DNA of 64,000 bases. Origin: an uncultured Candidatus Saccharibacteria bacterium (GTDB lineage: Bacteria; Patescibacteriota; Minisyncoccia; Phycocordibacterales; CSBR16-119). The notes beneath the pieces were generated by a model that was given only the letters and a program-made list of their open reading frames with translations, did not search any database and was not told the origin of the DNA. Shown in pieces: positions 2,662 through 57,769 of the stretch. Position 1 is the first letter of the stretch. Every line of letters starts with the position of its first letter. The translations under genes and the position numbers were made by a program. The stretch is from the NCBI GenBank assembly GCA_964557535.1, contig CAZLAD010000001.1:58482-122481 (forward strand), in the 5' to 3' direction.

Positions 2662-3981
2662 ATGAGTGACATATTCAAGATCAAGGGCGGGAAAAAACTA
2701 AAAGGCACCATTAGACCACAAGGCTCGAAAAACGAGGCTTTTCAGGTTATCGCCGCGACGCTTCTGACTGACGAAGACGTGGTTATTGAAAATATTCCAG
2801 AAGTTTTGGATATCTTGAATTTGTTCGAAATCCTAAAAATTTTGGGCGTCGAAATTACGAAGCTCGGTCACGGTTCTTACAAACTAAACGCAAGCGCCGT
2901 CGATGTCGAGAAAATGAAATCGGAAGAATTTTCAAAACTTTTCTCCAAACTTCGCGGATCACTTTTGGTTGCGGGTGCGATGCTTGGGCGATTTGGAAAA
3001 AGTGTCATTCAACAGCCAGGCGGAGACAAAATCGGAATTCGTCCAATCACAACTCACGTCAAAGCCTTTGCCGATATTGGTGCGGATGTAGAAACAAAAG
3101 GAGATTTTCAGGAACTTGTTTTGAAAAATATTGTTTCGAAAAGGATCACTTTGAGCGAAACTTCGGTTACTGGAACAGCCAACGCAATCCTCTCGGCTGT
3201 TTTGGAAAAAGAATCTCCGCATGTTTTGGAAATTTATAACGCCGGTTGCGAAACTTATATCCAGCAGCTTTGCAAAATGTTAAACAATATGGGCGCCAAG
3301 ATTTCTGGTGCAGGCACGAATCTTGTCGTTATCGAATCAGTCAAAAAACTACACGCTACAAATCACACTCTTTTGCCGGACATGCTCGAAATCGTCAGCT
3401 TGATCGTGCTTGGAGTTGTGTGTGGCGAAGGAATTTTTATAGAAGGTGCCAAGAGAGAACACATCGGCGAAATTACAAATATTGTTTTGAAGAAACTCGG
3501 TGTGCGTTTCGAAGAGCGAGAAGATGGATTTTTCGTTCCCGAACACAAAGAATATGAAATCCAAAAACCGAGAACTCCAGGAAAAAATATTCGTATCATT
3601 TATGATGACAAATGGCCGGGACTTTCGCCGGACCACATCAGTAGTCTGATTGTGCTTTGTGTTTATGCCAAGGGCATGGTGACTATTCGTCAACGCATGT
3701 TTGATCGACGACTTCTGTTCTGTGACGTTTTGAACACCATGGGCGCAGAAATTGTCATGTCGCATCATCAGGAAGTTACGGTTGTTGGGAATAATCGAAG
3801 TCGAACTTTGGTTGGTCTCGAGATGGCATCACCTGATATTCGCGCCGGCATGGCACTACTTATCGCCGCGCTTTCAGCCAAAGGCGAAAGTATTATCCAA
3901 AATGCGCATCAGATAAATCGTGGTTACGAACAAATCGTTGAGCGACTTCAAACTCTCGGCGCCGATATAGAATATGCCTAA
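2662..3981 (+). CDS. murA: UDP-N-acetylglucosamine 1-carboxyvinyltransferase (MurA), active-site Cys replaced by Asp
   Basis: Full-length MurA similarity (KGGKKLKGTIRPQGSKNEA...). The active-site loop reads QPGGDKIGIRP where E. coli has LPGGCAIGARP. Confidence 0.95.
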   Translation: MSDIFKIKGGKKLKGTIRPQGSKNEAFQVIAATLLTDEDVVIENIPEVLDILNLFEILKILGVEITKLGHGSYKLNASAVDVEKMKSEEFSKLFSKLRGSLLVAGAMLGRFGKSVIQQPGGDKIGIRPITTHVKAFADIGADVETKGDFQELVLKNIVSKRITLSETSVTGTANAILSAVLEKESPHVLEIYNAGCETYIQQLCKMLNNMGAKISGAGTNLVVIESVKKLHATNHTLLPDMLEIVSLIVLGVVCGEGIFIEGAKREHIGEITNIVLKKLGVRFEEREDGFFVPEHKEYEIQKPRTPGKNIRIIYDDKWPGLSPDHISSLIVLCVYAKGMVTIRQRMFDRRLLFCDVLNTMGAEIVMSHHQEVTVVGNNRSRTLVGLEMASPDIRAGMALLIAALSAKGESIIQNAHQINRGYEQIVERLQTLGADIEYA

Positions 3982-28746: not shown

Positions 28747-28767
28747 AGCAATTGATAAAATCAAGCC

Positions 28768-30180: not shown

Positions 30181-30209
30181 TTGACAAATAACAGATAATA
30201 TGCTATTTT
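30181..30209 (+). promoter_or_regulatory. Promoter, copy 1 of the TTGACAAATAA-N5-AATATGCTA module
   Basis: TTGACA at 30181-86, a 17-nt spacer, and an extended -10 TGcTATTTT. A near-identical 25-nt motif occurs at 43084-43112. Confidence 0.55.
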
Positions 30210-30269
30210 ATATTTGAGTAACTACGTACAAACCGCCGATGGTAAAACATTGGCTTCAAACTTAAAAAC

Positions 30270-30722
30270 ATGGACACCTTCACCATTGACTACGGAGTTA
30301 ATATTGTGGATATGTTGAAGATCCACAATATTAAGGTAAATACAAGTATCAAGACGAACAGCTTCGAGATGCTCCATGAAGGAAAAGGGATACAGGATAT
30401 CCAGTATGAAGTCTTCAAAGCAACGCGGAGCCACCGAAGTCATTGGGCTGGCTATGTGGGTATTCGTACTCATGAAGTTCGTGAGGAAATGGCAGAAAAG
30501 GGTTTCCGGAATGCTACGCTCCAAGAACTGATAGCTTATGGCGTCTCCGAGAAATGCCCACCAACCAACTCGGGCATAAGAATTCTTGATTGGGCTCTAG
30601 AAGGCCTTCCAGGATACATCCCTCGTTTTGATAAAGGTAAGTACAGTACCTGGCTCACTGTTGATAAAAACGAATGGTCGTGGCACGGCCAAGAAAAGTT
30701 CCTCGGCATTCGTACACAGTAA
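30270..30722 (+). CDS. Hypothetical protein (150 aa)
   Basis: Coherent ORF with its own promoter (30181) and terminator (30739-30768). No motifs. Moderately GC-elevated. Confidence 0.45.
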   Translation: MDTFTIDYGVNIVDMLKIHNIKVNTSIKTNSFEMLHEGKGIQDIQYEVFKATRSHRSHWAGYVGIRTHEVREEMAEKGFRNATLQELIAYGVSEKCPPTNSGIRILDWALEGLPGYIPRFDKGKYSTWLTVDKNEWSWHGQEKFLGIRTQ

Positions 30723-30738
30723 GCTACAAAGTGCAGCA

Positions 30739-30768
30739 GGCCCCGCAAGTCGGGGCCTTTTGCTTTTA
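30739..30768. terminator. Bidirectional intrinsic terminator
   Basis: Stem GGCCCCG/CGGGGCC with loop CAAGT, then TTTTGCTTTT. It sits between convergent genes. Confidence 0.75.
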
Positions 30769-41606: not shown

Positions 41607-42998
41607 CTAAAAGCTATCAAATGCTTCGTCGGCATTAACTACCGGTCCGTAACCGCCACTTTTCTCGATCGGCAAGAATGTTGAATTTTTCTCGTCGAAA
41701 TACAAATCAACTTTTCCAACCGGACCGTTTCGGTGTTTTTCGATCAAGATCTCGGCGATACCAGTAGACTCGCTGTCGGTTCTGGTACCGGATCTGTCTT
41801 CGCGGTGGATGAACATGACGACGTCGGCGTCTTGTTCGATGGAACCGGAGTCGCGAAGGTCAGAAAGTCTCGGTTTACCACCACGAGATTCGACGGCACG
41901 CGAAAGCTGAGAAAGTGCAAGGACGGGGACGTTTAGTTCGCGAGCGAGGCCTTTGAGCGAGCGGGAAATTTCGGTAACTTGGTTGACCATCGAATCGTAA
42001 TTTTTGCTCGTGTTCATGAGTTGGAGGTAGTCGACGACGATGAGTCCGAGACCGAATTCGGTTTTCCAGCGACGGGCGACGGACTTCATTTTGATGATAG
42101 AGTTTCCAGCTTGGTCGTCGATGTAAATTGGCGCTTTTGAAAGTTCGTTCAAGGCGTCGCGGATTTTATTGAAATCTGACTCGGCGCTAAGTTTCCCGGT
42201 GCGGAGTTTCCAGGCATCGACGTGGGCTTGGGCAGAGAGCATGCGTTGGGTTAATTGTTGCGCAGACATTTCCAGAGAAAATACGCCGACCGGAACACCG
42301 GCTTTGACCGCGGCGTTTCTGGCGATGTCGAGCGCGAGAGTTGTTTTACCGACTGATGGACGCGCCGCGAGAATAATGAGATCGGATTTGTGAAGTCCAC
42401 CAAGCAGGTTGTCGAGACTTGTAAATCCAGTTGTGACGCCACCCAAGCCTTCTTTGTTGTCGTGAAGTTTTTCGAGATGCTCCCAAGTTTCGTGCAAGCT
42501 TTGTTTTAGACTAACGAATGTCTGACCTTTCGGATCGCCGGTAATAGCAAAAACTTTTTTCTCGGCTTCGTCCATCAAGTCTTCGACGGGTACATCGGAT
42601 TCGGAAAATCCAACATTGGCCAAATGTTCTCCGGCTTCGATAAGCCTCCTCATCAAACTTTTCTTGTAAACGATGCGAGCGTAATGCTTCACATTGGTCG
42701 AAGCGGGAACGGAATTTGTCAGATCGGTCAGATATGTGCGGCCACCGATTTGTTCGAGTTGTCCGCGATTTTTTAGAGATGTTGAAAGTGACAAGAGATC
42801 AATCGGTTCGTTTTTGGAAAACAGATCAATCATCGCTTTGAAAATTATGCGATGTTTTTCGGAATAAAAAGTTTCAGCTTGGACGATGTCGATGATTTCG
42901 TTTAGGGCTTGCGGATTTAGCATAATCGAACCCAAAGTTGCTTGCTCGGCATCGAGATCGTGGGGCGGAATGCGTACATGTTTTTTGACTTCAGACAT
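41607..42998 (-). CDS. dnaB: Replicative DNA helicase DnaB
   Basis: Walker A LIILAARPSVGKTTLAL, Walker B VVDYLQLM, and a RecA-like C-terminal domain. Confidence 0.93.
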   Translation of the reverse strand: MSEVKKHVRIPPHDLDAEQATLGSIMLNPQALNEIIDIVQAETFYSEKHRIIFKAMIDLFSKNEPIDLLSLSTSLKNRGQLEQIGGRTYLTDLTNSVPASTNVKHYARIVYKKSLMRRLIEAGEHLANVGFSESDVPVEDLMDEAEKKVFAITGDPKGQTFVSLKQSLHETWEHLEKLHDNKEGLGGVTTGFTSLDNLLGGLHKSDLIILAARPSVGKTTLALDIARNAAVKAGVPVGVFSLEMSAQQLTQRMLSAQAHVDAWKLRTGKLSAESDFNKIRDALNELSKAPIYIDDQAGNSIIKMKSVARRWKTEFGLGLIVVDYLQLMNTSKNYDSMVNQVTEISRSLKGLARELNVPVLALSQLSRAVESRGGKPRLSDLRDSGSIEQDADVVMFIHREDRSGTRTDSESTGIAEILIEKHRNGPVGKVDLYFDEKNSTFLPIEKSGGYGPVVNADEAFDSF

Positions 42999-43083
42999 AG
43001 GCTGATTTTAGCACGACCGTCGAAACCCAACTCATTGCCAAAAGTTTGTGGATTGTGTGGAGAAGGGGGATAAAGACAGGTGC

Positions 43084-43112
43084 TTGACAAATAATTTCTA
43101 ATATGCTACATT
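43084..43112 (+). promoter_or_regulatory. Promoter, copy 2 of the TTGACAAATAA-N5-AATATGCTA module
   Basis: TTGACA at 43084-89, a 17-nt spacer, and an extended -10 TGcTACATT at 43107-12. Confidence 0.5.
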
Positions 43113-43327
43113 TAACCAGCTTGCATTTCGCTTGCAATAACCGGCCTAGGGCCACAAACCCGCCCTTTCACAACTATCGTCATTTGGGCTGATAACCCCA
43201 CAGATGGTCTTCGGACCCCAGACCTACCAAGGAATCTGTGTTTGACATACGATTACACGGCTCGAAGTTTTCTGTCGGCCATTAATCTTCCGCCCCGCGC
43301 AGCAATGTGCGGGGCAACTTTTTTGTA
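43113..43327 (+). ncRNA. Candidate small non-coding RNA or leader of about 200 nt (promoter to intrinsic terminator), class unknown
   Basis: Lies between the promoter at 43084 and a strong terminator at 43292-43327. There is no ORF. It contains hairpins GGCCTAGGGCC and GGTCTTCGGACC. trpS downstream has its own -10 right after the terminator. Confidence 0.3.
43292..43327 (+). terminator. Rho-independent terminator immediately upstream of the trpS promoter
   Basis: Stem GCCCCGC(g)CA/TG(t)GCGGGGC with a 4-nt loop, followed by AACTTTTTTG. Confidence 0.75.
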
Positions 43328-43341
43328 TAAACCCTAAACTT

Positions 43342-43350
43342 TGCTAAAAT
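43342..43350 (+). promoter_or_regulatory. Extended -10 TGcTAAAAT 6 nt upstream of the trpS ATG (leaderless)
   Basis: TGCTAAAAT, then taggca, then ATG at 43357. Confidence 0.55.
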
Positions 43351-43356
43351 TAGGCA

Positions 43357-44331
43357 ATGGAAAAAAAGATTCTAGTTTCGGGGGCCAAGCCGACAGGCAG
43401 ACTTCATATCGGTAATTATTTTGGCGCGTTGAAACAATTTGTTGATTTACAAAAAGACTACAAAGTCCATATTTTTTTGGCTGACTATCACGCGCTCACA
43501 AGCATTCACGACCGACAAGAAATGCAGAGACTTTCTTTTGATCTTATTTGCGCATACCTCGCTATTGGAATCGATCCCAAAAAATCTATTTTATATCGTC
43601 AGTCAACGCTTCCCGAACACGCAGAGCTCGCCTGGATATTTAACTGCCTTATCAGTGTTCCTTGGCTTGAGCGCGCGCATGCCTTCAAAGATGCTCAAGC
43701 GAAAAAATCAGACATAAACGTTGGAACTTTTGATTACCCGGTTCTCATGGCTGCGGACATCCTCATGTACGATGGTGAGGTGGTGCCGGTCGGTAAAGAT
43801 CAGGTTCAGCACATCGAAATGGCGCGCGAGATAGCGAACAAGTTCAACAACACGTTCGGCGAAACTTTCAAAACACCCAAAGAACTGCTCGTCAAAGAAG
43901 TTGAAATTGTGCCAGGCACTGATGGACAAAAAATGTCCAAAAGCTACGGCAACGTCATTCCGCTTTTTGGAACTGACGCCGAGATTGAAAAGGCGGTTAA
44001 GAGCATTGTCACAGATTCGAAATCTCCAGCCGAGAAAAAAGTCGCCGAGGAAAATAATATTTACAAAATTTACAAGCTCGTCGCAACAGCAGAAGAGCGC
44101 GAAGCGATGCGTGCCGGATTTGAGCAGGGCGGACTTGGGTATGGCGAAGCGAAAAAGATGCTTCTTGCGAAAATTTTGGAATACTTTGGACCCATGAGAA
44201 AAGTATATGACAAGTTTCAAGCCAATCCGAAAAAGGTGTATAATATCTTGGCCCGCGGTGAGAAAAAGATGCGCAAACTCGCCGAGAAGAAAATGGCCAC
44301 AGTGCGCAAGTTAACGGGTTTGAGAAATTAA
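43357..44331 (+). CDS. trpS: Tryptophanyl-tRNA synthetase
   Basis: HIGH-class motif (GRLHIGNYFGA) and KMSKSYGN. Confidence 0.93.
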   Translation: MEKKILVSGAKPTGRLHIGNYFGALKQFVDLQKDYKVHIFLADYHALTSIHDRQEMQRLSFDLICAYLAIGIDPKKSILYRQSTLPEHAELAWIFNCLISVPWLERAHAFKDAQAKKSDINVGTFDYPVLMAADILMYDGEVVPVGKDQVQHIEMAREIANKFNNTFGETFKTPKELLVKEVEIVPGTDGQKMSKSYGNVIPLFGTDAEIEKAVKSIVTDSKSPAEKKVAEENNIYKIYKLVATAEEREAMRAGFEQGGLGYGEAKKMLLAKILEYFGPMRKVYDKFQANPKKVYNILARGEKKMRKLAEKKMATVRKLTGLRN

Positions 44332-44344
44332 TAAAAAAGATGGG

Positions 44345-44459
44345 TCCCGTAAGAGATGTTTTGTTAAAAACAATCACTTCGCGGGTAGGGGTTCGAAGAG
44401 TTATTTAATTACAAAAATTAACAGGGTACGCAAATTAATAATTTGCTATCTCTAACGGG
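44345..44459 (+). repeat. IR-bounded element E2 (115 nt) ending at the ATG of a 49-aa membrane ORF
   Basis: TCCCGTAAGAGAT ... TACGCAAATTAATAATTTGCTATCTCTAACGGG followed by ATG. It begins 14 nt after the trpS stop. Confidence 0.75.
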
Positions 44460-44609
44460 ATGAAAAATTTTGTTTTGGGTTTGGTTTTTGTTTTGATTTT
44501 GATTGCGGTTATCGTTTTATTCAAGAGAATGGGCGAAGAGAAAGAACCAGAACTTAGGAGCTTGGACGAATTTTCAAATATTCAGGAGGGCGACATATTG
44601 CCACAATAG
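44460..44609 (+). CDS. Small hydrophobic protein (49 aa), putative
   Basis: MKNFVLGLVFVLILIAVIVLFKRMGEEKEPELRSLDEFSNIQEGDILPQ. The start codon is the ATG that terminates element E2. A terminator follows. It is below the ORF-track length cutoff. Confidence 0.4.
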   Translation: MKNFVLGLVFVLILIAVIVLFKRMGEEKEPELRSLDEFSNIQEGDILPQ

Positions 44610-44680: not shown

Positions 44681-45373
44681 CTATGAACCTGCCGGCCGAA
44701 TACCGTTGTTCACGAAGCCGCTTCCGTTGCCCATCTGTACTTCGACTCGTGTTCCTTTCGGAACAGAGAAGAGATACTGGTCATTTCCAGCGATTGTCCC
44801 CGTGGGGACGGCCGTCGGGGCAGGTGCTGAAGCCTGTTGTGTCGGCGGGGGCTGATGGCTTGTCGCTGGCGATGTGCTGGTCTGCCAGAAACGATTCCAT
44901 GCGTCACGTAACACTCCGAGCAATGCCAATGCCAGGGCCAACAGAAAAAGGCCGACCAAGATGGCGAGAACAGGCGGCACCCAATCGAAGTGTTTACCCC
45001 AGTTGATACCGGAGTATTTCGTTCGAGCGTTACAGCCGTCGGCTGCCATCTTGGCATCCAACGGCTTGCCTTGGACCACGAAGGTCGTATCCACGTGTTG
45101 CGACACGCAGATATCCTTTTCGTAGGCCGTGCCGGAGCACCACCTGCGGGTTTCCTTGCTGGGCACCGCTTTCTCGTAGGAGAGATGCACGGTGTCTCCG
45201 CGCAGGTGCAGGCCCTCGAAGTTCTCCTTGGTGAAGGGCGAGGGATTGTTGCAGGCGCTCGCGAAGAGCAGGATGATGCCCAAAAGGGCGATCACTGGGA
45301 GCTTCCAGGTCGGTTTCAGGTTGTTCATGATCATTGGGAATGTGCCGGTCAGGGCGGTTTGGTTTATAAGCAT
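44681..45373 (-). CDS. Putative lipoprotein or membrane protein with a Pro/Thr/Gln-rich linker, in a 57% GC island
   Basis: Signal plus lipobox-like ...LLFASAC. A second TM (VLAILVGLFLLALALALLGVL) and a low-complexity PATSHQPPPTQQASAPAPTAVPT segment. Foreign codon usage. The start is probably at an internal Met (45334 or 45328). Antisense ORFs are artefacts. Confidence 0.5.
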   Translation of the reverse strand: MLINQTALTGTFPMIMNNLKPTWKLPVIALLGIILLFASACNNPSPFTKENFEGLHLRGDTVHLSYEKAVPSKETRRWCSGTAYEKDICVSQHVDTTFVVQGKPLDAKMAADGCNARTKYSGINWGKHFDWVPPVLAILVGLFLLALALALLGVLRDAWNRFWQTSTSPATSHQPPPTQQASAPAPTAVPTGTIAGNDQYLFSVPKGTRVEVQMGNGSGFVNNGIRPAGS

Positions 45374-45558
45374 ACTAGCATATTAAATTGTTTATGTCAA
45401 TAGTTTAAAAGGGAAGTCAATTTTACCCCTTGCTTTTTTAAAACAAGTGTGTTACTATGCATCCACAATCAAATATTGTTCTGTAGATTTCCGAAAACGT
45501 TAATTATTTCGATGTTCTAGAGAGCTTTCGAGATTAATTAATATTTTAGGAATTTTCT

Positions 45559-49071: not shown

Positions 49072-49151
49072 ATCCCGATAGTGAAAGCGGTCGCTTTCGG
49101 GAGAATTACTGGTATTTATTAATCTAAAGACCGCAAACTATCACTATCGGG
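49072..49151 (+). repeat. IR-bounded element E3 (short variant, 80 nt) ending at the aspS ATG
   Basis: AATCCCGATAGTGA ... TCACTATCGGG followed by ATG. Internal palindrome GAAAGCGGTCGCTTTC. Confidence 0.7.
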
Positions 49152-51875: not shown

Positions 51876-52430
51876 ATGAATTTGGAATCAAAAATCGAAT
51901 CTTTTTTGTTTTGGAAAGGTGAACCGCAGACAGAGTGGGAGATAGCTGTTGCTATGCGAGTTGATCCGGCTGAAATTCCGGGAGCCCTGGCAAAGCTCGA
52001 AGAATCGCTAAAAGGCCATGGTGTTACACTTGTCCGTCATGGAAACAAGGTGATGCTTGGCACGAATCCCGAAATGTCACATTTTTTTGAAGAACTTCAG
52101 AAAGAAGAACTGAGCAAAGAACTTTCCAAAGCTGCGCTCGAGACACTTTCGATAATTCTCTACAAGGATTCGGTGACGCGAAGCGAGATAAATTTTATTC
52201 GCGGAGTGAACTCAGGATACATCTTGAGAAATCTGGAAATTCGCGGATTGGTGGAGAAAGCAAACCAAAAAAACGATGCCCGCACGTATGTTTACAAGCC
52301 GACTCTCGAATTGTTATCATATCTCGGGGTTTCCAAGGTCTCCGATTTGCCACAGTTCGAAACGATCAGAAATACACTCGAGACCAAGCTCTCCGGTCAG
52401 CCAGATCAGGAAGGAAATGAATCCCGTTAG
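51876..52430 (+). CDS. scpB: Segregation and condensation protein B
   Basis: Tandem winged helices (ALETLSIILYKDSVTRSEINFIRGVNSGYILRNLEIRGLVEK). Confidence 0.85.
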   Translation: MNLESKIESFLFWKGEPQTEWEIAVAMRVDPAEIPGALAKLEESLKGHGVTLVRHGNKVMLGTNPEMSHFFEELQKEELSKELSKAALETLSIILYKDSVTRSEINFIRGVNSGYILRNLEIRGLVEKANQKNDARTYVYKPTLELLSYLGVSKVSDLPQFETIRNTLETKLSGQPDQEGNESR

Positions 52431-52539
52431 AGATTGATTGGTTACAAATTCAGAAAAAAGCGGGTAGAATACGAAGGGTAAATTAATTATAAATTTTAAT
52501 ACAAGCTACGTCGCGCCGGGTGCGACTATCTCTAACGGG
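52421..52539 (+). repeat. IR-bounded element E5 (119 nt); left IR overlaps the scpB stop codon
   Basis: ATCCCGTTAGAGAT at 52421-52434 contains the scpB TAG. ...GTCGCGCCGGGTGCGACTATCTCTAACGGG is followed by ATG (dacA-like). Confidence 0.75.
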
Positions 52540-53481
52540 ATGAAGATTAGAATTAAAGAATCCGAAAGACAAATTATATTTGCGATGGTCTTACTGGCCA
52601 TCGTGGGTGTTTTTTATGTTCGTCAAATAAATCAAGAAATTATTTTAGGTGAAATAAAAGACAAAGAAATTCTCGCATACGAGGAATCGATTAAACCGTT
52701 TTTGAACTTGGCGCTCGAGGCCAAATCTTTCGCTATTTATGACGCTGATATAAATAATTTTGTTTACAAGAAAAACGCCGAGAGCGCCATGCCGCTTGCA
52801 AGTCTGGCCAAAGTCATGAGCGCGATTGTGGTGATGGAGAATGCACCGGCCGACACGGTGTTTGAAATTTCCAAAGAATCGCTTGACCAAGCCGCCGATC
52901 ATGGACTTCTACTTCATGAGAAATGGACTCGTGACGAACTTTTGAAATTTGCGCTACTTGTCTCTTCAAATGACGCTATTCACGAGCTTGCACTTGAAAC
53001 AGGCCAGATCATGGATCCCGAAGCCAAAGACTCGCTCCAAGTTTTCGTAGCGCGTATGAATACCAAAGCATCCGAACTAGGGCTCAAAAGTTTTGTCTTC
53101 AAAAACGAATCAGGACTTGATCTAAATGAAGCAGAAAATGGTGCGTATGGTTCGGCGCGCGACATGGCCAAACTTTTTGCTTACGCGGTCAAAACCTATC
53201 CAGAAATTTTTGACGTAACTCGCACCAAGATTGCGACGATTGCCTCACTTGATAAATCGCACAACATCGACAACACCAACACTGTCGTCGAAGAAATTCC
53301 TGGAATTGTCGCTTCAAAGACTGGATTTACGACTCTCACTGGTGGGAATTTGGTCGTAGCGACAACCCCCGATGCCAAATCAACTCGCGTTATGATAGTC
53401 ATGGGATCGACATATGATGAACGCTTTACCGACATGAAAACTCTCACCAGTGCCGTGGCCCATAGTAACAATAATTTATGA
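52540..53481 (+). CDS. dacA: D-alanyl-D-alanine carboxypeptidase (S11, PBP5/6-like)
   Basis: SLAKVMS (SxxK), SSND (SxN) and KTGFT (KTG) motifs. N-terminal TM or signal. Confidence 0.8.
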   Translation: MKIRIKESERQIIFAMVLLAIVGVFYVRQINQEIILGEIKDKEILAYEESIKPFLNLALEAKSFAIYDADINNFVYKKNAESAMPLASLAKVMSAIVVMENAPADTVFEISKESLDQAADHGLLLHEKWTRDELLKFALLVSSNDAIHELALETGQIMDPEAKDSLQVFVARMNTKASELGLKSFVFKNESGLDLNEAENGAYGSARDMAKLFAYAVKTYPEIFDVTRTKIATIASLDKSHNIDNTNTVVEEIPGIVASKTGFTTLTGGNLVVATTPDAKSTRVMIVMGSTYDERFTDMKTLTSAVAHSNNNL

Positions 53482-56514: not shown

Positions 56515-56521
56515 GATATAA

Positions 56522-56638
56522 ATCCCGTTAGAGATGTCGTAGTCAAAATTATTCAGGAAGGTTATAAAATAATGGTCGTCAATTACTTACAAAATATTAA
56601 GTCAGATACGCAAACCAAAGTTTGCTATCTCTAACAGG
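56522..56638 (+). repeat. IR-bounded element E6 (117 nt) filling the ftsW-murG spacer
   Basis: ATCCCGTTAGAGAT ... GGTCGTCAATTACTTACAAAAT...GATACGCAAACCAAAGTTTGCTATCTCTAACAGG followed by the murG ATG. Confidence 0.75.
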
Positions 56639-57769
56639 ATGAAAATTGTTATTACAGGCGGTGGTTCGGGAGGGCATTTTTATCCTGCTATCGCAATAGC
56701 AGAGAAGTTGAACGAACTTGCATTGGCTGAAAAAATTTTAGATCTTGAGCTTTTTTATATTGCCGACACCCCATACGACAAACGCGCGCTCGACGACAAT
56801 CGAATGACTTTTTTGGAACTAAATACTGGAAAACAAAGAACATATTTTTCTGTTCAAAATTTTTTTGATATCTTCAAAACTTTTTTCGCGACAATTCGAG
56901 CAATTTTTATCCTTTATAAAATTTTTCCAGATGTTGTTTTCTCCAAAGGTGGCTATCCGTCGGTTCCGGTGACTATTGCTTCGAGAGTGCTTGGGATACC
57001 TGTCGTTATCCACGAATCAGATTCTGTACCTGGACGCGCCAACAAAATGGCTGGTAAGTGGGCAAAACGTATTGCGATTTCTTACAAAGAAGCTTCGGAT
57101 TATTTCCCCAAAGAAAAAACCGCTTTCGTTGGACACATTGTCAGAAAAGAAATTCGAACACCGCTTAGAGAGGGGGCTTTTGAATATCTAAAATTAAAGT
57201 CTTCTTTGCCTGTTATTTTTATTTTGGGTGGTTCGCAAGGTGCCAAGATAATAAACGAGACGATTTTAAATGCTTTGCCAGAGCTTGTCACGAGATATCA
57301 AATTATCCATCAGACAGGAGTAAAAAATTTTGAAGAAGTGAAAATTATTGCCGATCTAAATCTAAAAGAATCAGAAGCCAAACAAAATTATTATCCATAT
57401 CCATATCTAAACAAACTAGCCATACGTATGGCGGCGGGGGTCGCGGAGCTTGTCGTCTCTCGTGCGGGAGCAAATTCTATTGCCGAAATAGCATCATGGG
57501 GACTACCGTCTATCATCATCCCGATAACAAAAACAAATGGTGATCACCAGCGCAACAATGCGTTTAACTATGCTGAAACAGGAGCATGTGTAGTAATCGA
57601 AGAATCCAATTTGGCTCCGAATGTTTTGATCGAAGAAATAGATAGGCTTTTTGCTGATACAGCGACCTTTAAAAACATGAAGGAAGCAACATCAAAATTT
57701 GTTTTTCCAGACGCCGAAGAAAAAATTGCCCGAGAGATAATTAATATCGGACTTTCCCATGAGCAATAA
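56639..57769 (+). CDS. murG: UDP-GlcNAc:MurNAc-pentapeptide GlcNAc transferase
   Basis: N-terminal GGGSGGHFYPA loop. GT-B fold. C-terminal UDP-binding region. Confidence 0.9.
   Translation: MKIVITGGGSGGHFYPAIAIAEKLNELALAEKILDLELFYIADTPYDKRALDDNRMTFLELNTGKQRTYFSVQNFFDIFKTFFATIRAIFILYKIFPDVVFSKGGYPSVPVTIASRVLGIPVVIHESDSVPGRANKMAGKWAKRIAISYKEASDYFPKEKTAFVGHIVRKEIRTPLREGAFEYLKLKSSLPVIFILGGSQGAKIINETILNALPELVTRYQIIHQTGVKNFEEVKIIADLNLKESEAKQNYYPYPYLNKLAIRMAAGVAELVVSRAGANSIAEIASWGLPSIIIPITKTNGDHQRNNAFNYAETGACVVIEESNLAPNVLIEEIDRLFADTATFKNMKEATSKFVFPDAEEKIAREIINIGLSHEQ

Follow-up and report, generated by a model that had tools for sequence, protein, structure and literature searches.

RESULTS

Features between dnaB and trpS

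We analyzed a 64-kb stretch of DNA, referred to throughout as the window. The unit studied here has dnaB on one side (minus strand, 41607-42998) and trpS on the other (plus strand, 43357-44331). Pfam confirmed the two genes, and the Pfam-assigned neighbors of the unit are recR, dnaB, and trpS. The features of the intergenic region, together with two related promoters elsewhere in the window, are the following.

42996..43013, minus strand: start of dnaB with a leaderless-type promoter (TGCTAAAAT, 6 nt, ATG at 42998-42996), kept in all relatives
43047..43073, no strand assigned: G-rich block of three adjacent DnaA-box-like 9-mers (TGTGGATTG, TGTGGAGAA, and GGGGGATAA) between the dnaB promoter and P1, read from the sequence
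43084..43112, plus strand: promoter P1 by consensus scan (-35 TTGACA at 43084-43089, 17-nt spacer, TG at 43104-43105, -10 TACATT at 43107-43112)
43109..43316, plus strand: strain-specific cargo without a counterpart in locus L164, where the alignments of the flanks stop at 43108 and restart at 43317
43119..43324, plus strand: predicted transcript of ~206 nt, its start placed ~7 nt past the -10 and its end within the T-run
43155..43164, plus strand: CA-rich leader motif CAAACCCGCC, found by motif search
43204..43245, plus strand: first AUG, which opens a 13-codon ORF (MVFGPQTYQGICV) and then a stop; the AUG lies in a predicted stem, CACAGAU/AUCUGUG
43292..43324, plus strand: intrinsic terminator (10-bp stem at 43292-43315 with 8 GC pairs, AAC, and a T-run of six T at 43319-43324)
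43323..43359, plus strand: trpS promoter P2, overlapping the T-run (TTGTAT at 43323-43328, 16-nt spacer, TG at 43342-43343, TAAAAT at 43345-43350, 6 nt, ATG at 43357)
30181..30209, plus strand: twin of P1, ahead of a 150-aa ORF (30270-30722) that is followed by a terminator (30738-30758)
45372..45400, minus strand: third promoter copy (3 mismatches), upstream of an ORF of ~217 aa

The original prediction was of an independent small RNA (sRNA) gene, and it began from a 25-nt motif said to occur at 30181 and 43084 and, at the first of these sites, to drive an ORF at 30270. Our motif scan of the 64-kb window agrees on each point: TTGACAAATAA-N5-AATATGCTA is exact at 30181-30205 and 43084-43108, and the 150-aa ORF and its terminator lie behind the first copy. 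The scan added the third copy, on the minus strand at 45400-45376. Only 0.01 matches were expected from shuffles, and 0 of 100 shuffles reached 3. P1 is of the extended -10 type, with TGcTACATT at 43104-43112. Neither the 150-aa ORF nor the ~217-aa ORF behind the third copy had a Pfam match. All three promoter copies in the window have CAAACC(C)GCC downstream, and CAAACCGCC, a variant of CAAACCCGCC, occurs just twice in the window (30229-30237 and, on the minus strand, 45361-45353), each lying 39-48 nt past the first base of the -35 hexamer in one of the other two promoter copies. That CAAACCGCC stands behind the other two TTGACA...AATATGCTA promoters and CAAACCCGCC within the cargo points to a shared promoter-plus-leader module preceding units without a Pfam match.

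A strong intrinsic terminator had been placed at 43292-43327. We found it there, with its stem at 43292-43315 and T-run at 43319-43324, and the stem folds at -22.2 kcal/mol. With the terminator's 3' arm left out of the folded segment (43190-43303), the 5' arm (GCCCCGCGCA) was essentially unpaired (z = -0.15). An arm left unpaired in this way indicates that no antiterminator would form, and the terminator thus looks constitutive in the folding predictions.

It had also been claimed that trpS starts from its own TGcTAAAAT -10 just after this terminator. Indeed, TGCTAAAAT occupies 43342-43350, its last base 6 nt before the trpS ATG, and this TGCTAAAAT-N6-ATG arrangement is kept in 12 of 13 distinct related loci; dnaB mirrors the same layout on the opposite strand. 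The general pattern TGNTAAAAT-N6-ATG (TGnTAAAAT) has 11 matches in the window against 2.7 expected, and the matches sit on gene starts. Examples are at 28753, 38483(-), 39941(-), 43013(-), 43342, and 47627. SD-like motifs precede only 3 of the 61 ORFs of at least 120 aa. The enrichment of this pattern and the rarity of SD-like motifs suggest that leaderless mRNAs are widespread in this genome and that translation proceeds without SD sequences. With a promoter of this form directly before its ATG, trpS is most likely made as a leaderless mRNA from a promoter that overlaps the upstream T-run. A literature search for leaderless mRNAs or sRNAs in Patescibacteria gave nothing relevant.

The G-rich block is kept at the same position in L164-L184, and the distant relatives L001, L013, L100, and L103 carry it as ATGTGGTAAAAATGGGGATAAA. 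As a marker of oriC it was not supported: GC skew is positive throughout the 64-kb window, with no sign switch. Since the skew does not change sign, the block is probably a regulatory site rather than oriC, and its DnaA-box-like 9-mers are putative binding sites.

Contents of the predicted transcript

We infer transcription from P1, and both ends of the transcript, from the consensus elements described above. The ~200 nt that follow P1 had been described as free of ORFs, and this is upheld in that the ~206-nt transcript contains none of more than 31 codons. The longest ORF within 43113-43327, of 31 aa, starts at a TTG; from the first AUG, only 13 codons can be read. A 73-codon open frame of the cargo, searched against 1.84 billion protein representatives, returned only three weak multi-stretch matches, which we judged spurious. 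CA-rich leaders ahead of an ATG are general for leadered genes of the window and are found also in the ORF-bearing cargos of relatives. With a CA-rich leader that holds CAAACCCGCC and a first AUG that opens 13 codons, the unit is closer in appearance to a small leadered mRNA, intact or as a remnant, than to a structured sRNA.

The stable hairpins reported for the transcript are both present (GGCC-TAG-GGCC at 43143-43153 and GGTC-TTCG-GACC at 43206-43217), but they do not amount to an excess of structure over chance. The body of the transcript without the terminator (43116-43288) folds with z = -0.99, and 30 of 200 shuffles fold at least as well. It is the terminator that brings the whole unit to a z of -2.3. 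The plus strand is C rich here, with a GC skew of -0.24.

Known RNA families and regulation of trpS

Searching Rfam for 6S, SRP, T-box, and other families had been suggested as a check. No known family was found at 43100-43330, even at an E value of ≤10, and no family reached the gathering score anywhere in the 64-kb window. At E ≤ 10, the interval 42950-43420 gave terminator look-alikes only, with no T-box, 6S, SRP, tmRNA, or RNase P. ARAGORN found no tRNA and no tmRNA in the window. Rfam likewise gave no match on the cargos of 12 close loci and, on 20 distant trpS loci, tRNAs only, with no T-box. The earlier view that trpS has no T-box here is therefore sustained: there was no RF00230 match, no GGTGG-type core on reading, and no antiterminator.

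We asked whether the unit could nonetheless be a cis-acting leader or attenuator of trpS, be it a T-box, a leader peptide, or a riboswitch, with the terminator as a regulated switch. Its position directly 5' of an aminoacyl-tRNA synthetase gene speaks for this, as does the order of promoter, short ORF, terminator, and gene, which is the classical layout of an attenuator. However, the 13-codon ORF MVFGPQTYQGICV has no Trp codon, nothing else is available for the 5' arm of the terminator to pair with, and folding did not reveal mutually exclusive terminator and antiterminator hairpins. In addition, the conserved leaderless promoter belongs to trpS itself. A T-box would be expected to keep a lasting link to the synthetase gene, but the cargo is unrelated among L164-L184, where sister strains hold unrelated sequences that include ORFs of 57-146 aa, and it is missing in more distant relatives, whose gap is ~100 nt. 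Together with the lack of a T-box match even at E ≤ 10, these results largely refute the idea, and we give it very little credence.

Replacement of the cargo among relatives

Among the species representatives of GTDB and JGI, TrpS identity was at best 52-59%. The divergent dnaB/trpS pair was present in 8 distant loci, 7 of which have a gap of ~100-166 nt and no cassette, and none of the distant relatives showed DNA similarity to the candidate. Closer relatives (TrpS identity of 97-76%) came from a large protein collection, and we compared ~20 related loci. dnaB and trpS are divergent in all of the closer relatives. We found that P1, a terminator, and P2 are co-located in L164-L172 and L176-L184 (12 of the 13 distinct loci). 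In these 12 loci, the TTGACA -35 lies 85-87 nt from the dnaB start and is usually followed by a TG-extended -10, and the trpS promoter TTTTTGTATAAA...CTGCTAAAAT-N6-ATG is common to all of them. L173-175 have neither P1 nor the TTTTTGTATAAA...CTGCTAAAAT promoter. Judged from these alignments, dnaB and trpS do seem to be separated by a genuine promoter-to-terminator unit, whose independence from trpS is well supported by the positional conservation.

What lies between the promoter and the terminator is a different matter. Every cargo closes with its own GC hairpin and T-run. From the -10 to the terminator, the sequence of one genome bears no relation to that of the next. L164 is the closest relative with a different cargo; its identity to the window is 95.5% as far as 43108 and 95.0% from 43317 onward, and nothing in between aligns. 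Apart from near-identical copies in L081-083 and L181/L182, blastn of the cargo against 179 loci and the rest of the window gave no match. That the cargo is swapped for unrelated sequence in sister strains argues for a strain-specific accessory transcript rather than a conserved sRNA or a trpS leader. We distinguished eight types of cargo.

Type A (window, L081-083, L181/182): 208 nt, 13-codon ORF
Type B (L164, L183): 340-390 nt, 5-codon ORF
Type C (L165/167, L184): 70-80-aa ORF and 12-codon ORF
Type D (L166/168/171): 103-aa ORF
Type E (L169, L172): ~130 nt, 10-codon ORF
Type F (L173-175): GIY-YIG gene, without P1
Type G (L176-178): two tandem promoter-to-terminator units
Type H (L180): two tandem promoter-to-terminator units

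ORFs of 57-146 aa are carried by five types, a GIY-YIG gene by one, and only ORFs of 5-13 codons by three. Coding-type conservation was seen for just one of the 57-146-aa ORFs, that of 103 aa. Apart from GIY-YIG, the products of the relatives' cargo ORFs had no match in Pfam, and tblastn of every one of these ORFs against the cargo of the window gave nothing meaningful. Motifs like CAAACCCGCC are found in the leaders of types B and D. The two-cassette variants (L176, L180) have a second promoter of their own.

The copies of cargo A that are identical to that of the window are on three short contigs (L081-083). In L181/L182, cargo A has two substitutions, C43116A and G43150A (2 of 208 positions), and G43150A breaks the closing pair of the GGCC/GGCC hairpin. 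Between L181 and the window, the cargo is 99% identical and the flanking genes are ~95% identical, while the block at 43017-43080, upstream of P1, is only ~69% identical. A cargo with two differences beside a block of ~69% identity marks the region as a recombination mosaic, and the 99% identity of the cargo thus cannot be read as purifying selection. The cause could nevertheless be purifying selection, acting on a functional RNA, and not a recent transfer, and diverged forms of cargo A might exist beyond the ~20 loci compared.

We also observed that identity to L181 drops to 64-83% at 45254-45453 of the window, the intergenic region with the third promoter copy; the sequence on either side is mostly 93-100% identical, so that this is a second mosaic patch. 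Comparing the cargo with viral contigs gave no exact match, comparing it with phage records gave none, and plasmids yielded only chance 31-nt matches to Sinorhizobium plasmids. A 10-mer, TGATAACCCC, with an anticodon-like loop of the CUGAUAA type is shared with the L164 cargo, probably by chance.

The unit as a candidate sRNA gene

These comparisons bear directly on the original prediction. The part that stands is that the unit has its own promoter and terminator, apart from trpS; the sRNA gene itself gained no support from family membership, structure, or conservation. Of the generic marks of such a gene, a promoter and terminator separate from those of the neighbors are present and are conserved in position, but conservation of sequence or structure in relatives, or covariation, was not seen. 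Absence of conservation among relatives had been named beforehand as a sign against the sRNA, and it is what we observed: the only copies have 0-2 substitutions, and all other cargos are unrelated. Because cargo A has no homologue beyond near-identical strains, it offers no covariation to test.

We considered whether the transcript is a genuine trans-acting regulatory sRNA of this group of strains, whose C-rich single-stranded stretches (CCCGCCC, AACCCCAC, and GACCCCAG) would pair with G-rich targets. In favor of this are the promoter and terminator without a long ORF, the near-invariance of the cargo (2 of 208 positions) where the flanks differ by ~5%, and the whole-unit z of -2.3. However, the z of the body alone is -0.99, no family matched, homologues occur only in near-identical strains, and G43150A breaks a hairpin pair. 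The best duplex energy of the cargo with the 5' regions of the window's genes was equaled in 25 of 100 shuffles. The C-rich plus strand (GC skew of -0.24) is atypical of structured RNAs, and an anti-SD mode of action is unlikely because the organism hardly uses SD sequences. We therefore regard a trans-acting sRNA as unlikely, though not negligibly so.

Micro-ORFs in the slot and MITE-like elements

Comparison of the diverged copies within cargo types B and E shows conservation to be highest in the micro-ORF, and for this reason we kept a functional micro-ORF as an alternative. On this account, the transcript of the window would be the mRNA for a functional 13-residue peptide, MVFGPQTYQGICV (43204-43245), as one of several micro-ORF cassettes that use the slot. 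Its start is the first AUG of the transcript, stands behind a CA-rich leader, and has an ATGG context (ACAGATGG) like those of the ORF starts in other cargos, and the conserved islands of types B (MKKRR, with a synonymous change) and E (MEAAFQ[A/T]LFR) set a precedent. The AUG is sequestered in a predicted stem, however, and lies 91 nt past the -10 rather than 13-37 nt, as in most other leadered units (the distances are 61 and 96 nt at two further matches). MVFGPQTYQGICV is also unlike all other micro-ORFs, and its codons show no variation in which codon-level selection might be seen. On balance, we think there is only a small chance that the peptide is what the unit exists to make. More broadly, tiny ORFs or RNA motifs in the slot may be functional, and describing the cargo as a decayed remnant could be wrong.

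Several details of these cargos can be recorded here. The type B micro-ORF reads MKKRR and then TAG, with a synonymous change between the copies (L164, ~2650-2680; L183, ~1145-1175), and the frame is open beyond the TAG, with LVTE common to the copies. The type E micro-ORF, MEAAFQ[A/T]LFR, is at ~2870-2905 of L169 and ~1225-1260 of L172, and its peptide is similar to the second mini-ORF in type C (MKSAFGAVFRRR / MVIERHAVFRRR; L165, L184). In type C, the 3' 80 nt, including the hairpin GGAAGAACAYYTTGTTCC, are better conserved than the type C ORF (L165, L184).

The window also contains MITE-like elements of ~125 nt, at 2481-2601, 44343-44462, 52420-52542, and 56521-56641, bounded by the inverted repeats ATCCCGTTAGAGAT...ATCTCTAACGGGAT. 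The 17-nt repeat end has 9 matches against 0.07 expected, with single ends (2 mismatches) at 49138 and 61043. The outer end of an element often supplies or abuts the ATG of the neighboring gene, and Rfam had no match for these elements. The same repeats flank the 86-aa GIY-YIG gene that occupies the dnaB/trpS slot in L173-175 (L173, ~2720-3003). Given these shared repeats, the short copies appear to derive from a GIY-YIG mobile element and to lack its ORF.

DISCUSSION

We propose that 43084-43324 is a self-contained transcription unit in a strain-variable slot and that its cargo is an accessory cassette, which may be a micro-ORF transcript or what is left of a decayed gene; we put the probability of this reading at roughly 0.68. 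The slot lies where the promoters of dnaB and trpS diverge, in a lineage of Patescibacteria (Paceibacteria-like), and would have arisen by insertion into an ancestral divergent promoter region of ~100 nt. P1, as an extended -10 promoter of the sigma-70 type, would start the ~206-nt transcript, which the intrinsic terminator would halt without any alternative structure, and trpS would be read separately from P2 as a leaderless mRNA. If the terminator halts the P1 transcript and trpS has its own promoter, then the terminator would also insulate trpS from P1. The exchange of cargo between strains would proceed by recombination, probably anchored on the short conserved promoter and terminator-flank sequences. 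The cargo would have neither a housekeeping role nor one in regulating trpS. We infer both this recombination mechanism and the lack of a function, and the cargo of the window is most likely an accessory or decayed cassette.

A bolder version of this proposal is that the locus is a dedicated expression slot, in which a fixed promoter, the DnaA-box-like block, and a terminator that doubles as an insulator serve unrelated small genes, micro-ORFs, and RNAs that are exchanged through anchors in the flanks, much like integron cassettes but without an integrase. Diversifying selection, through host interaction or phage defense, might then act on the contents, and the 206-nt cargo would be a functional sRNA or micropeptide allele. 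We consider this speculative and improbable as it stands, and we prefer the accessory or decayed cassette described above.

Taken alone, the RNA is an uncharacterized strain-specific transcript of modest importance. The comparison with relatives removes a tempting annotation, in that the unit apparently represents no conserved CPR sRNA and no leader of trpS. It also documents the transcription layout of an uncultured Patescibacteria lineage, in which housekeeping genes, dnaB and trpS among them, apparently have leaderless promoters, SD sequences are almost absent, and leaders are CA rich. The hypervariable slot bounded by promoter and terminator is a possible marker of strain-level recombination and a possible source of small genes without known relatives in reduced genomes.

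Several known systems resemble parts of this arrangement. In the enterobacterial Spot 42 and RyhB class, free-standing sRNA genes are each transcribed from a sigma-70 promoter of their own and end in an intrinsic terminator. The unit is like them in being intergenic, with its own promoter and a Rho-independent terminator, ~200 nt long, and without a long ORF. It differs from them in that its conservation ends with near-identical strains, its folding does not rise above background, and neither a seed or target signal nor an Rfam family was found; sister strains hold ORFs in the same promoter-terminator frame. The T-box leader of trpS in Firmicutes (RF00230) likewise precedes trpS and has an intrinsic terminator at its end, whereas here there is no covariance-model match, T-box sequence, or antiterminator, conservation of the unit does not follow that of trpS, and the latter gene is served by a promoter of its own. 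Leader-peptide transcription attenuators of the trpL and pheM-pheST type share the succession of promoter, short ORF, and terminator before an amino-acid-related gene, but the unit has no Trp codons and no alternative hairpins, and its cargo is interchangeable between strains.

Further parallels are horizontal regulatory switching, in which recombination replaces intergenic or regulatory regions in a mosaic fashion, and the integrons, in which a fixed promoter expresses promoterless cassettes. The locus differs from an integron in that there is no integrase among its neighbors (recR, dnaB, and trpS) and neither attC-like sites nor shared boundary repeats were seen in alignments inspected by eye; the breakpoints coincide with the promoter and terminator-flank sequences. 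The two-cassette variants in L176 and L180, each with its own second promoter, are also unlike integron cassettes. With both systems, the locus shares conserved flanks, unrelated inserts in close genomes, and a fixed promoter for whatever follows it.
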